Of a stretch of 64,000 nt of DNA, positions 12,751 through 64,000 are shown piece after piece. Numbering within the stretch: position 1 is the stretch's first letter; each line of letters opens with the position of its first letter. The notes beneath the pieces are model-generated. The model saw nothing but the letters and a program-made list of their open reading frames with translations, had not been told where the DNA came from and searched no databases. Source of the DNA: a virus (taxonomy: Duplodnaviria; Caudoviricetes); the IMG/VR virus record IMGVR_UViG_3300024521_000001, positions 44,391-108,390 of that record; one strand, 5' to 3'. Made by a program: the position numbers and the translations under genes.

Positions 12751-15700
12751 TTAATACCATCCATCTGTTGAATCAAAGGTAATATCCAACGACTCACCAT
12801 CAAAAAGAGTAAAGCTGGAGTTCACGCCAAGTAAATCTTCTGCACCGTCTGGGGCCACGGTGAGTTGGTTCCCACTAGATCCCGAGTTGATAATCCTAAG
12901 CGTTTGCCCACTCACTCCAGCCGGGAGAGTAGCTGTGAAACCCGCGGAGTCCGTATTACCGAAGACCACCGAGTCTGTCACTAGAACCGTATAGGTAGTC
13001 GTCTGTCTCGTAACGGTTTTGATCCGGCCAACCGTAGTCGTTGTGCCAGCTACATCTAGATCACCGCCGAAGAACACACTTCCTGAAATTACGCGGATAG
13101 CAAAATTACTGAGACCTTCTGTGGGGGCATTGACGATCAAAAGGGTCTGCGCGTTGGTAATGTCACCCGTCAGATTGTCGCTTATGAAGGGCTCATTTAT
13201 CTCGACCTGGGAAATATTGGCAATGCTCTCGGTCTCCGTTTGTGTGGTGATGGCCGAGATAAAGGTAGTTCCAGTTAAAGACGTAGTATCCCCTGACGCT
13301 CCTACCAGGGTTTGGGTGACGAAAATTCCAGAGGCCAGTGTGCTGGAGCCATCGGAGGTGAATGTTTCGGAAATGATCAGGCCGATGATACCGGACGGTG
13401 TACCAGCAATCGCATGGGGTCCTGCACCTGAAACAGCTAGATTCCCCCCTAAGATCACATCGCCCGACACGACGCGCAAAGCGTAGTTATTGACACCTTC
13501 CGTGGGCGCAGCGACGATCAAAAGGGTCTGCGCGTTCGTGATACTCGATCCAGCACCAACGGTGATTATGGGCTCCTCAATGCGGACCTGAAAAACATCG
13601 GTAACGACCTCGGCTACCGTCTGAGTGGTAACCCTGGCTGCGAAAAGCGCCCCGCCTAAAAAGACGGTATCACCCGAAACTCCGATTACGCTCTCTTCAA
13701 TCTCGAACTTCGCTGCCCGATTGGAAGTCCCGCCTGAAGTGAAATTTCCACGGATCTGAACTTGCCAAACGTCGGTTGGAATATTGGTCCCAATGGTGAA
13801 GGGTAGGCCAATGAACATCGACCTGGCTGGTCCGGTGGACCGCAGAGCATAGTTATTGACTCCTTCCGTGGGAGAACCCGTGAGAAGCAGAGTGTGAGCA
13901 TTGGTGATCACACCTGTCAGGTTGTCGGTGATGCTAGGATCGAAGATCTTGACCTGGGCGATATCGTTAATAGTCTCGGTGGCGGTCTGGGTGACAATCG
14001 AAGCCCCGAAGAAGGCCCCATTGAGAGTGCTATCCCCTGCAACCCCGGTCAGGCTACTTTCAACTTTGAATTTATCTGCTTCACTAGCAGATCCCCCTGA
14101 AGTGAATGCTCCGCTCACCACGACTTGATGCCAGTCCTCTAGCGTGGTCCGGCCGATGGCAAGCTGGAGACCTTGAAATATAGAAGGAGCGAGTGCAGTA
14201 GATCTGATTGTCCAGTTGGCCTCGCCTGCTGTGGGTGAAGCGGTTATGAACAAGGTTTGCGCGTTTGTTATGTCACCCGTCAAATTATCGGTGATGTTTG
14301 CCCCGTCGAAGCGGCACTGGCTGATATTGGCAATGTTCTCAGTCTCGGTTTGAGTGACAAAGGTTGCGTCGAAATAAGTACCGACCATCCCGGCGGTATC
14401 TCCCGATGCTCCGGTCAATGCCCCTTCTATTCTGAGCTTGGCCGATTCGTTTGAAGATCCCCCAGAGGTGAAATTTCCAGCAAGTAGAAGCTGCCAATTA
14501 TCATCTACGGCACTTTGCCCAATCGCATGTGGCCCTGCACCAGATACGACCAAGTTGCTGGCGAGGGTGACAAGGGTGGAGTAGAGATTAATTCTCGCCC
14601 AAGGAGTACCCGATAAACCAATTTCCAAGCGGTTGGTCGGAGCGACTGACAGAGCACTTAAACTACCGCCGCCACCGTCATCAAAAAGGAATGCCGATGA
14701 ATTGTCTATTTCAATGTCCCCGGCAAGGATGCGGAAAGCGAAATTACTCTCCCCTTCTGTGGGTGCGCCTGTGATCAGAAGCGTTTGGGCGTGGGTGATA
14801 TCTCCCGTCAAGTTGTCCAGAATATTTGGCTCGTCAATGCTTACAGTGGCGATATTCGCCACATTCTCTGTGGCGGTCTGGGTTCTGATGTTGCCGCCAA
14901 ACCAGGACTGGAAAATACCTACCGTTTGCCCACTTGCACCAGTGAGCCGGTTCTCAGTCTTGAATCTGGAGGCCGTGGTCCCGCCAGAGAGCAATGAGAA
15001 ATAGTCTCCGCTGAGGGTGAGCTGGCTTGATAGGTCGATTGCAGCACCGATGGCGTGTGAGGGCAAAGGAAGAGGAAAGTTGAACCCGCCATCGTCGGTT
15101 ATCGAAAAGTTAGTGACGAAGCCGCCCCCGTTTTTGTCGTCCTGGAGGGTCCAGATCGAATCGCCTCCGACGTTTATTACGTCAACAAATGTCCTCCATG
15201 TGGCTCTGTTGGCATTCTCGCCAGCTCCAATGAGGTCGATAGAGTGAGAATCCTCAAAAGCCGCCGCGCCTTGACCGGCAATGTCGATCTTCAGAGCTAC
15301 ACCAGCAGTACCCTCCTGGGGTCCAAAAACCGCAAAGCCGCTCAGATTGAGGCTATTAGAACCCATGGAAGTGATGGAGAAAGGAGTATTGAGCGAAGCC
15401 GAGCCGGTTGACATTTGGAGCAGCGCGGAACCGACCATCAGATTTAACCTACCGTCAGCCGAGGATCCAGACCGCGCCTCAATGTCAATGGAGATGCCCT
15501 GGTTGGCAACCGTAGACTCGGCAACGAACTCAATCGTTTTGAGCGGAGGACCGCCGCCGATGTAGATTGCCAGCCTGTCGTAGTCCGAGAGGCTGACGAA
15601 TCGGTCATACAACCGCCACTCCTGGGGATTAAGCCCGCGCCGTTGGGCGATAATATCAGCGGCATCCCTGTGCATTTGGGCGTCACTGGCAGCACCGAAG

Positions 15701-40199: not shown

Positions 40200-40544
40200 T
40201 TATGGGCCAGTCCTGGGCCACTTCCATCCAAAGCCCCATCGAAACGGAGCCGGGATAACACCCATGCCGCCGATCTGCACACCCAGGAACATAAGCGGGG
40301 CCATCACCAGTCGAGGAACGGCCTTCGGGTAGTTTCGCCAGTTGCCTAAATCACGGAGTTTTAGAAGAGGGACCCTCTTCGTTTTGAATGTTCACCAAAA
40401 TAGAGCAGCGTCAGCCTTCACGCGCTGCCAGTATGTCCCGCCCATCCAGTAGGCCAGATCGTGCGCGTAACAGCATTGGCGCCAGTTCCCATCAAACCAC
40501 TTACTACAGCCATCGAAATGGAAGTCGTAGTCGGTTTTTATCAA
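40200..40544 (-). CDS. phospholipase A2-like protein with in-frame UGA (candidate selenoprotein)
   Basis: DGCS...CCYAHDLAY...RVKADAALFW[TGA 40392-40394]TFK...MFLGVQIGG...PFRWGFGW; the frame continues to TAA at 40200; SECIS-like hairpin at 40364-40380. Confidence 0.75.
40364..40380 (-). promoter_or_regulatory. bacterial SECIS-like hairpin
   Basis: GAAGAGG-GUC-CCUCUUC, 17 nt, starting exactly 11 nt after the UGA. Confidence 0.65.
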
Positions 40545-43228: not shown

Positions 43229-43482
43229 CCCCCAACGGTCTGAGGGATTCCCAGGATGCTCTCAATCTTCGGGTCGAACTTGCTGATTTTCTCGCCCTTC
43301 TTCCCGCCAAAGTTCATCTTGAAGAAGGCGTAGCCTTTCTTCTTCAGCTTGTCGAAGGTCAGCTGTGTTGCGGCCACTTCGTCTTTGTCGTCCGGATCCC
43401 ATTGCAGCTTAACGTCGCCTTCTTTAATGTCCATGAAAGCCAGTGTGTGTTTCGGTTTCTCAAGGGTTGCTGTCGGTGTCAT
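43225..43482 (-). CDS. hypothetical phage protein
   Basis: GDVKLQWDPDDKDEV...FDKLKKKGY; AAGGAG SD. Confidence 0.75.
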   Translation of the reverse strand: MTPTATLEKPKHTLAFMDIKEGDVKLQWDPDDKDEVAATQLTFDKLKKKGYAFFKMNFGGKKGEKISKFDPKIESILGIPQTVGG

Positions 43483-51869: not shown

Positions 51870-52067
51870 ATGAGACAATTAAGCAAACGCGAACAACGTC
51901 AACGTCAGGCTTGGATGAGTCGGTTCGATACTCTGATGACCGAGCGAAAACCAGAGACAGCGGGAAGGCAGGATTGGGACACCGCTCTGTTTTACTACCT
52001 CCAAGGTGTGACACCGCTAGAGGCAGTCGAGTTTATATGCCAACCAAAACCGGAAGGGATCGAATAA
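51870..52067 (+). CDS. hypothetical protein
   Basis: 65 aa with GGATAGG leader. Confidence 0.6.
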   Translation: MRQLSKREQRQRQAWMSRFDTLMTERKPETAGRQDWDTALFYYLQGVTPLEAVEFICQPKPEGIE

Positions 52068-52900
52068 TGACACCGATAGTCGAAGTGAAGCTATGGAAGT
52101 ATGACGCGATCATGGTCAACACGTCAGGCGGGAAGGATAGCCAGACCGCGTTGAGGGCTGTTGTCCAGTTGGCAAAGCGTCAAGGCTATCCCTTGTCACG
52201 CATCGAGGCAGCACACGCGGATCTTGATAAGGTCGAGTGGGAAGGCTGTCCAGAATTAGCCCGAGAACAAGCAGAGCATTATGGCGTGAGGTTTAGCGTG
52301 GTCAGGCGAAGAACCAAAGACGGTGATGAGAGTACGAATCTTCTGGACTACGTCAGACAGCGAGGAATGTGGCCTAGCAACACGGCACGATACTGCACCA
52401 GTGACTTTAAGAGAACGCCATGCAGCCGAGTGTTGACCGCGCTGGACAGGAAAGTACGCAGGGACAGGAGACACCACACCAAGATCCTGAACGTCTTTGG
52501 GTTCAGAGCGGAGGAATCACCAGCACGGAAGAAGAAGCCAGTCTTTGAGAGGAACAAGACCGCGAGTACCAAGAGCCGCACGGTTTACAACTGGCTACCG
52601 ATTCACAACTGGACGGAGGTCGAAGTCTGGGCAGATATCAAGGCTTCGGGAGTACGACACCATCGAGCGTATGACATTGGAATGCCGAGGCTGTCTTGTT
52701 GCTTTTGCATCTTCGCGCCAAAGGCTGCCTTGGTGATCGCGGGGAAGGATAAGCCAGAGCTACTCCAAGAGTACGTCGATGTGGAAAGGGAGATCGGTCA
52801 CACGTTCAGGGTTAACCTGTCACTGGCCGAAGTTCAAAGAGCAGTACAGGAAGATGAGCAGCCAGACTTAGTCGCGCTAGACGGAGCCTGGAACATGTAG
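52067..52900 (+). CDS. PAPS-reductase-family (PP-loop) protein
   Basis: Start MTPIVEV; SGGKDS PP-loop, RYCTSDFK, GFRAEESPAR and RLSCCFC. Confidence 0.9.
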   Translation: MTPIVEVKLWKYDAIMVNTSGGKDSQTALRAVVQLAKRQGYPLSRIEAAHADLDKVEWEGCPELAREQAEHYGVRFSVVRRRTKDGDESTNLLDYVRQRGMWPSNTARYCTSDFKRTPCSRVLTALDRKVRRDRRHHTKILNVFGFRAEESPARKKKPVFERNKTASTKSRTVYNWLPIHNWTEVEVWADIKASGVRHHRAYDIGMPRLSCCFCIFAPKAALVIAGKDKPELLQEYVDVEREIGHTFRVNLSLAEVQRAVQEDEQPDLVALDGAWNM

Positions 52901-54090: not shown

Positions 54091-54644
54091 TGGCATACAA
54101 CAAGAAGAAAGCCTACAAGCTGAGTGACGCGGAGAAACAGATGGCAAGCGGGTATGTTGGATGCCCTATCAAGCGAACGCGGATTCAGGTCGCGTTATGC
54201 GGAAAGATGCAAGCCGAGTGCCGAAAGAAGTGTGAGCAGATGAACATGGGGAATGGTTGCCAACACCTTGATTACACCGAGGCAACGGACGCATGGACCG
54301 AGTATCAACGAGCGAAACAGGGCTAAAAGTGTGTGTATGGTCATACGATCATGGTACACTAACAGAAAAGGAGGATAGGGAATATGCCGAAGGCTACGTT
54401 TGAGATCCAAAAGCAACCCAAACCCACAAAGGAAATGCCCTGGACGTTTTCGATTCTGGAGGAGAACGACGAGGGTGACCCCAACCCTGACACATGGGTG
54501 GTCGCCAAAGATGAGGGTGAGTACATTCACGGTATCTGCACCGAGAGGGGCTTGGAACATGCCCACGATTGGGCCATGTGGAACTACGGTTACACCGGCT
54601 TCCGAGCGCACCTTCCGGGGGAGCCTTGGGAGCCAGTATTTTGA
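54090..54644 (+). other. two small hypothetical genes (54090-54326 and 54384-54644)
   Basis: A Cys-rich ORF, and an ORF preceded by the promoter-like repeat and GGATAGGGAA. Confidence 0.6.
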
Positions 54645-54660: not shown

Positions 54661-54733
54661 GCGAAAAGGCCAGGGGTAACCTTGGTCTTTGCTCCGTGAG
54701 TCAACCTAGTCGGAGCCTGACGAGCATGGTTGA
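54661..54733 (+). ncRNA. type II hammerhead ribozyme with pseudoknot
   Basis: GC-GAAA-[stem III AGGCCAGGG/GUAA/CCUUGGUCU]-UU-[stem I GCUCCG/CGGAGC]-CUGACGA-GC; loop I UCAACC pairs with 3' GGUUGA. Confidence 0.85.
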
Positions 54734-63527: not shown

Positions 63528-63800
63528 ATGAAAAAACACGCCATTAAGCCTGGATCGAACGGGAAGGAAGGTTGGTGGTATGAGATCATGCCACTGACCT
63601 TCGACCGTGCCAGGATCGTCCTGACCGATGGGTACTCTGTTGACGATGGATGGTGATACGACTCACCAGGGTTGGCAGTTGTCGGCCTTGCGACATTTGA
63701 TCCTAAGACGATGGATGAACCGGAAGGATGGATGCGAAACCTGTCAACGGCTCGACGCCGGCCAGGGGGTGACCCCAAAAAGGAATATATTCGACGATGA
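63528..63800 (+). CDS. phage protein with in-frame UGA (candidate selenoprotein)
   Basis: MKKH...TDGYSVDDGW[TGA 63654-63656]YDSPGLA...EPEGWMRN..TARRRPGGDPKKEYIRR; SECIS-like hairpin at 63667-63690. Confidence 0.7.
63667..63690 (+). promoter_or_regulatory. bacterial SECIS-like hairpin
   Basis: CAGGGUUGGC-AGUU-GUCGGCCUUG, starting 10-11 nt after the UGA, with GU in the apical loop. Confidence 0.55.
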
Positions 63801-64000
63801 GGTTGGCCGTGACGCGGTTAACCGACAGTCCCGCAAGCTCTTACACCCCTCAAAGTAAAGAGTACCCTAACATTCCCATCCGTGACTGAACGGCTCAAAA
63901 AACCCTAGCAAGGCTCACTGAGAGTATCACTCCTCCGGAGGATCTACCAGTTCTGCTTCCGGGGTTTCCTCCGGGGGGCCCGCCTGTCGTGGAGGAAACC

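Follow-up and report, generated by a model that had tools for sequence, protein, structure and literature searches.

A UGA codon followed by a conserved SECIS-type hairpin predicts a selenoprotein gene in a phage genome and its relatives

Introduction

Does a UGA codon in the middle of a short phage gene end the protein at that point, or is it decoded as selenocysteine (Sec)? The question is raised by a locus near the end of a stretch of 64,000 nucleotides (hereafter the window) from an uncultured, apparently marine virus of the Caudoviricetes, which comprises the last 64 kb of the 108,390-bp IMG/VR record IMGVR_UViG_3300024521_000001, rated 100% complete by CheckV. A sequence-only reading of the window had proposed that a gene of 90 residues is hidden here by a TGA, and that a hairpin behind this codon acts as a selenocysteine insertion sequence (SECIS). 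The comparative analysis reported here indicates that the gene very probably encodes a 90-residue selenoprotein, with Sec inserted at the UGA at 63654-63656; to judge from the sequences compared, the most likely explanation of the locus is that a phage gene from a new protein family uses Sec recoding of the bacterial type. The argument refers to the following features.

63528..63800, plus strand: the whole gene, 90 codons and a terminal TGA in a single frame, with homologues across both halves and purifying selection on both sides of the internal TGA
63654..63656, plus strand: the in-frame UGA, predicted Sec codon 43 (W-U-Y, where U is Sec), in a column that holds Cys in homologues
63667..63690, plus strand: the SECIS-type hairpin inside the open reading frame (ORF), with arms at 63667-63676 and 63681-63690 and the loop AGUU at 63677-63680
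63798..63800, plus strand: the true stop codon (TGA) of the gene, with no SECIS-like hairpin behind it

Results

One gene and one protein family across the UGA

Between the ATG at 63528 and the TGA at 63798-63800, the frame is interrupted solely by the TGA at 63654-63656, and its read-through translation, which contains no Cys elsewhere among its 90 residues, is the very protein that the sequence-only reading had quoted; the two halves do lie in one frame. ORF calling under genetic code table 11 gives only two halves of 42 amino acids each (63528..63656 and 63672..63800). The bases at the site are well supported: the 601 bases around it show no differences in contigs of two runs from two studies, which are possibly the source of the DNA, and the site is also spanned by contigs, 90-95% alike and drawn from two other studies, that show no change at 63654-63656. 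An assembly error at this codon is excluded. Two variant bases in the hairpin arms (63667 C>T and 63672 T>C), seen in contigs of relatives, keep the pairing.

Single homologues span the TGA, in line with the earlier proposal that both halves belong to one family. A tblastn search against cultured phages found 11 records, all of them Caulobacter jumbo phages, in which single annotated genes cover both halves, and a word-indexed protein search returned two proteins, one of 91 amino acids with W-C-Y and a fragment of 49 residues, 83% identical, whose last residue is the W that precedes the column. All four of the first full-length homologues, three from Caulobacter jumbo phages and the fourth a metagenome protein, have W-C-Y at the position of the UGA. 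The window protein shares 42% identity with the gene product of Caulobacter phage BL47 and 63% with P0005, its closest relative among the Cys-form proteins. A much larger sample came from a HMMER search over 1.84 billion representatives, which yielded 462 proteins at E <= 1e-3 (best 7e-21). The best 150 of these were aligned with the three earlier proteins, and the column was counted over 152 relatives: Cys is present in 103, and five have a gap, four of them being N-terminal fragments that end exactly at W42.

Among viral DNA sequences, a first scan of IMG/VR yielded 6 relatives and a second 112; the best 80 of the 112 were kept and, together with locus L007 and the window, make up 82 rows. 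The kept relatives are 33 to 87% identical to the query. TGA occupies the column in 58 rows, 57 of which are from IMG/VR contigs other than the window, TGC in 15 and TGT in 6 (21 Cys codons together), and TAG in one, while the two rows that the search pattern did not parse have Y and C when read by eye. The column is therefore one of Cys or TGA in most homologues, as had been predicted. A TGA form also lies on a contig of a metagenome-assembled genome (MAG; at least one locus among the matches listed in cellular genome contigs).

The motif that the sequence-only reading had given for the family proved to be real, and it matches the consensus of 40 members, DxWCY...EPxGWxRHPxSGRRRPxGDPxKEY. Conserved positions occur in both halves (W42, Y44, A50, W57, E64-P65, G67-W68, R70, R76-R78, P79, G81-D82 and E86-Y87). 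Three database proteins (P0007, P0098 and P0012) have two W and one G at the column, followed by residues like those of the TGA forms (TPEAAVAAL). These are probably TGA forms for which genes were called under tables 4 or 25, to judge from the residues that follow; if so, they show how such genes get mis-annotated.

The hairpin at the window locus

The hairpin of 10 bp with an AGUU loop, claimed to begin 10-11 nt past the UGA, was found at 63667-63690, starting at the 11th nucleotide. Its stem has six Watson-Crick and four G-U pairs, and its folding energy on its own is -12.4 kcal/mol. The criteria for bacterial SECIS (bSECIS) elements given in the legend to Fig. 2 of a 2026 review of prokaryotic selenoproteomes (PMC13188914) are a loop of 3-9 nt, a stem of 4-16 bp, a G in the first two loop positions, a distance of 16-37 nt from the UGA and a minimum free energy of <= -7.5 kcal/mol. 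With a G at the second loop position and 20 nt between UGA and loop, the window hairpin lies within these ranges, and the agreement with the bacterial model asserted by the sequence-only reading stands. Across the 108 kb of the phage itself, 461 TGAs lie between open frames, and 17 of them also pass the filter, a background of 3.7%. An Rfam search of the whole window at the gathering threshold returned tRNA only.

Conservation and covariation of the hairpin in the family

For the comparison within the family, 57 distinct TGA or TAG rows were aligned without gaps from the TGG before the stop codon to 45 nt after it. The loop (columns 27-30) reads GGTC in 42 of the 56 TGA forms, CGTG in 6, AGTT in 5 (including the window) and otherwise in 3. 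GU occupies loop columns 28-29 in 53 of the 56, as opposed to none of 18 Cys forms. The helix tested consists of 8 bp, formed by columns 19-26 and 31-38. Of its cells, 77.4% are paired in the TGA forms, compared with 61.0 +/- 1.4% in shuffles, and the covariation score is 0.471, compared with 0.201 after shuffling and a maximum of 0.239 in slid controls; neither value was reached in any of 500 shuffles. Pair 24-33, which joins two synonymous third positions, exemplifies the exchange of bases (GC 16, AU 12, CG 7, UA 7, UG 3, GU 2, unpaired 10). The 18 Cys forms have no such structure: 41.7% of the cells are paired, against 39.2% after shuffling (reached by 111 of 500), with a covariation score of 0.169 against 0.136 (67 of 500). 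The hairpin thus covaries in TGA-bearing relatives and not in Cys forms, the outcome on which the sequence-only reading depended.

The published criteria, applied with a strictly bulge-free stem, are passed by 50 of 59 TGA or TAG forms, but by only 1 of 18 Cys forms (Fisher p = 1e-9). Of 40 TGAs at the ends of these genes, one passes. In 43 of the 59 TGA or TAG forms, exactly 20 nt separate the UGA or UAG from a GGUC loop. A covariance model of the phage hairpins (R1) was dominated by family-specific coding sequence, and Cys forms score 7-21 bits with it through coding similarity. The top-scoring Cys form, at 21 bits, is that of BL47, which carries a short G+C-rich hairpin (CGGC/GCCG, loop ACGU; L001:1588-1638) at the place of the SECIS. 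This hairpin could be left over from an earlier Sec form or have arisen by chance.

One relative, on a 63-kb IMG/VR contig, has TAG at the Sec column (L037:1570-1572). Its GGUC hairpin is intact and spaced as in the other forms (-11.4 kcal/mol), and the gene ends on TGA. The stretch is G+C-rich, and of tRNAs the record matched a tRNA-Trp (CCA) and no other. The change from TGA to TAG needs two base changes. According to a published account (PMC10778597), some bacteria recode UAG to Sec via a tRNA-Sec with a changed anticodon, and by analogy this locus may track a host whose tRNA-Sec reads UAG.

Selection, stop codons and the distribution of the two forms

Purifying selection acts on both sides of the UGA. 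Downstream of it, the ratio of nonsynonymous to synonymous substitution rates (dN/dS) is 0.19 for the window and L010, and 0.11 both for L012 and L013 and for L013 and L020; for other close relatives dS is saturated downstream, with dN of 0.18-0.26. Upstream values range from 0.14 to 0.57. In 53 of 56 TGA forms the frame continues past the internal TGA, without a stop, through 46-49 codons up to the family C-terminus, just as in the Cys forms; one TGA form (L021) is cut short and looks degraded. The codon right after the UGA is TAC, TAT, TTC or TTT in all 57 rows.

The 56 distinct TGA forms themselves end on TGA in 39 cases, on TAG in 10 and on TAA in 7, and therefore TGA is an ordinary stop codon in these phages. 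TGA ends 54 of 130 long open frames, and long ORFs of the window, of up to 1303 amino acids, are intact under table 11.

A tree of 79 rows (59 Sec-type and 20 Cys) is poorly resolved, with a median end branch of 0.52 changes per column. The maximum likelihood tree has 6 changes between Sec and Cys, at least 2 of which are forced by well-supported branches, compared with an average of 18 for shuffled labels.

Taken together, the exchange of Sec and Cys at one column, the conserved UGA, the covarying bSECIS hairpin confined to UGA forms, the selection downstream and the use of TGA as a stop elsewhere are the hallmarks of a bacterial-type selenoprotein gene.

Structure model and family context

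By the sequence searches made, the protein family is large and phage-specific and has no detectable known fold. Neither Pfam nor PHROGs matched the query, whole or in halves; when 40 members were searched, a single SH3 match in Pfam was put down to chance, and phrog_24748, of unknown function, matched 6 of the 40 and not the query. The sole profile match in the PDB, acylphosphatase (E = 0.69), was taken as chance. Comparison with solved structures likewise gave no claimable shared fold (best Foldseek E = 3.1; best VIA-align Z = 4.6, to an SPO1 capsid chain; chains of unrelated toxins among the weak matches were disregarded), and the ESM Atlas contained only hypothetical viral clusters.

An AlphaFold2 model built with 40 aligned relatives has a mean predicted local distance difference test score (pLDDT) of 90.1. 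It consists of three strands (17-22, 28-33 and 38-44), a single helix (47-56) and an ordered C-terminal stretch with the EPxGWxR and GRRRPxGD motifs. Residue 43 lies at the end of the third strand, right before the helix, a position in the model from which Sec could act as a reactive nucleophile or redox residue. Two TGA forms have a Cys two residues before Sec (D-D-C-W-U-Y; L031:685-690 and L007:3073-3078), possibly a C-x-U redox pair; most members, including the window protein, have no such Cys.

The neighbouring genes are conserved only among the 13 closest relatives and therefore give no functional clue for the wider family. The gene adjoins the junction with the start of the record: positions 63870-63995 of the window are an exact 126-nt direct repeat of the record's first 126 nt (the last 5 nt differ), and therefore the assembly closes on itself. 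This repeat indicates an assembly overlap in a circular or terminally redundant genome. Sequencing runs with partial matches (share 0.13-0.25) were labelled as cold-seep and marine-sediment samples. Among the runs listed as matching the stretch, none was of RNA.

Other candidate sites in the same phage

A second candidate UGA gene with a hairpin, in the opposite arm of the genome, had also been put forward, and its TGA and hairpin are present. The candidate gene lies at about 40200-40544 on the minus strand, with TGG-TGA at 40392-40394 and open frames of 91 and 63 codons. The hairpin has 7 bp (GAAGAGG/CCUCUUC), a GUC loop (GGUCC if the closing pair opens) 17-18 nt past the UGA and an energy of -7.8 kcal/mol.

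The genome-wide scan found its strongest hairpin behind the TGA at 54642-54644 (plus strand), at about 54665-54690, with 11 bp, a GUAA loop 31 nt after the TGA and -15.7 kcal/mol; the flanking open frames have 93 and 43 codons. This arrangement looks more like the end of a gene with a terminator than like a SECIS. Further TGAs that pass the bSECIS filter are located at 13110, 26391, 16788 and 16032 of the record, outside the window, and at 43264 (minus strand) of the window, and at a background of 3.7% most of these are probably due to chance. An ORF at 51911-52900 (plus strand) of the window matches phage families of phosphoadenosine phosphosulfate (PAPS) reductase (phrog_424, E = 3.5e-36), of the auxiliary sulfur-metabolism type.

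Discussion

Evidence on both sides and alternative explanations

Several results weigh against the decoding of the UGA as Sec. Neither a tRNA-Sec nor SelB was found in the phage record, the only tRNAs of which are tRNA-Met and tRNA-Glu. Five large related phage records have tRNA arrays in which no tRNA-Sec was found, the best matches being Tyr, Leu, Arg and Ser tRNAs. The MAG that holds a TGA form (G001; 3.2 Mb, completeness not given) yielded no SelA match, no SelB above the cut-off (best 189 bits, from the GTPase part only) and no tRNA-Sec above the cut-off; its TGA-form contig of 84 kb may be a binned phage, and the family occurs in 2 of 400 sampled genomes of the same class. The column is not invariant, as another residue takes the place of Cys in 44 of the 152 database relatives (Asp 15, Glu 5, Gln 4, scattered others), often Asp or Glu, and therefore the function of the family does not always depend on a thiol or selenol. 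Nine of the 59 TGA or TAG forms fail the strict bulge-free SECIS filter, and model R1 did not match the SECIS of E. coli fdhF. In addition, the 81-nt fold of the window sequence is unremarkable on its own (z = -1.57; 14 of 200 shuffles fold equally well), and therefore the significance of the hairpin rests on the comparative evidence. By contrast, the cultured phages with a Cys form infect Caulobacter vibrioides, a species for which no SelB-wing match was found in the control set; this is consistent with Sec decoding in the TGA forms. The large terminase is uninformative on the host, as its identity to terminases from cultured phages that infect various Proteobacteria does not exceed 28%.

The failure to find Sec machinery in the phage record, or above the cut-off in the MAG, would also fit a SelB-independent read-through, in which a near-cognate tRNA (Trp or Cys) decodes the UGA at low frequency while the hairpin slows the ribosome or release factor 2, and the full-length product carries a standard residue. 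It is general knowledge that a UGA together with a hairpin could in principle stimulate read-through. However, the stop codon is UGA in 58 rows and UAG in one, always at the Cys column, the loop sequence is conserved (GGUC or at least GU, with the frequencies given above), the spacing is exactly 20 nt in 43 of 59 forms, and both loop and spacing match the SelB-bound element of fdhF and the bSECIS model. A mere roadblock needs no fixed loop, and the conserved loop thus speaks against read-through of this kind, which is regarded as unlikely. Even less probable is a split gene, with genuine termination at the UGA, a first peptide of 42 residues and a second of about 47 that arises from re-initiation. 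This would agree with the two 42-residue ORFs under table 11, the second of which starts at TTG 63672, and with the N-terminal fragments ending at W42 in public protein sets. Nevertheless, the third strand (38-44) crosses the site in the structure model, with its pLDDT of 90.1, the codons directly past the UGA (Y-D/E) are conserved and under selection, no conserved start codon follows the UGA, and the Cys forms are single proteins.

The two remaining alternatives have next to no probability and are refuted by the data. A pseudogene, a chance nonsense mutation or an assembly error might be considered, as TGA is one base away from TGC and TGT and the hairpin is not significant in the single sequence, but 58 of 82 rows, at identities as low as 33%, share a TGA at this column, the downstream dN/dS is well below 1, and independent assemblies agree on the bases. 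A phage-wide reassignment of TGA to Trp or Gly (NCBI tables 4 or 25) could be read from the two W and one G in P0007, P0098 and P0012, which are inferred calls under those tables. However, TGA terminates the gene itself and 39 of 56 TGA-form relatives, table 11 leaves ORFs of up to 1303 amino acids intact, there is no suppressor tRNA in the phage, and in-frame TGA is limited to one column. Thus, bacterial-type Sec recoding accounts best for the locus.

Proposed mechanism and implications

In the proposed mechanism, the infecting phage would rely on the Sec machinery of its host, that is, on SelD, SelA, tRNA-Sec and SelB. The elongation factor, SelB, loaded with Sec-tRNA(Sec), would bind the hairpin at 63667-63690 inside the ORF and deliver Sec to a ribosome paused at the UGA at 63654-63656, and translation would then go on to the true stop at 63798. 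SelB binding, the insertion of selenium and decoding by the host are steps that we infer for this gene.

It is probable, at a lower degree of confidence than for the gene itself, that phages have a selenoproteome of their own. In this reading, the gene belongs to a large selenoprotein family that is restricted to phages, in which the UGA and its SECIS are deeply conserved and Sec and Cys have been exchanged several times, and the same phage has a second, unrelated candidate UGA/SECIS gene. If so, the Sec competence of the host and its selenium supply would be determinants of fitness or host range for such phages, phage fitness could depend on selenium, and the UGA/SECIS form would mark a Sec-decoding host and could be used for host prediction. 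Dozens of UGA/SECIS members would also mean that genes of this kind are systematically cut in two or overlooked by the gene callers used for phages. Moreover, the family constitutes a very regular natural series of SECIS elements (8 bp, GGUC loop, fixed spacing of 20 nt) for studies of SelB recognition, and, to judge from the model, it offers a new small protein fold with a putative reactive Sec or Cys.

Comparison with known systems

Sec decoding has so far been known for cells and for two poxviruses. Searches of openly available full texts found no paper on a phage selenoprotein gene. The words phage, virus and viral are absent from the 2026 review cited above (PMC13188914), and a 2023 paper on huge phages contains, in its accessible part, tRNA-Sec calls, with selenoproteins in such phages only suggested (PMC10747093). 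The only viral selenoproteins named in the available sections of a 2021 recoding review are the glutathione peroxidases (GPx) of the poxviruses molluscum contagiosum and fowlpox (PMC8310308).

Like poxvirus GPx, the phage gene would encode a viral selenoprotein, here a predicted one, that needs the Sec machinery of the host, and, according to the same review, the fowlpox SECIS also lies inside the coding region (PMC8310308). The poxviruses, however, infect eukaryotes and have captured cellular GPx genes that are decoded by way of a eukaryotic SECIS of the SBP2 type, whereas the phage gene has a bacterial-type SECIS and no cellular counterpart. Its protein is unrelated to any known selenoprotein family, with no Pfam match and no PDB fold match.

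The closest parallel for the decoding signal is found in bacterial genes with a SECIS inside the ORF, such as E. coli fdhF, which encodes formate dehydrogenase H: both have a UGA at a Cys column, a hairpin downstream of it within the ORF, and G-U in the loop. In the K-12 record of fdhF, the UGA is codon 140 and is followed by 18 nt and a GGUC loop, compared with 20 nt and GGUC in the phage family (AGUU in the window), and the fdhF stem has a bulged U, while the 10-bp stem of the window has no bulge. Unlike fdhF, the phage gene is carried by a virus in whose record no tRNA-Sec or SelB was found. Finally, the window protein shares one alignable domain of about 75 residues with the phage W-C-Y...GRRRPxGD family, the Cys forms of which in the Caulobacter phages BL47, CcrBL9 and CcrSC are annotated as 'hypothetical protein' and have TGC or TGT and no such hairpin, in contrast to the UGA and the SECIS-type element of the window gene.

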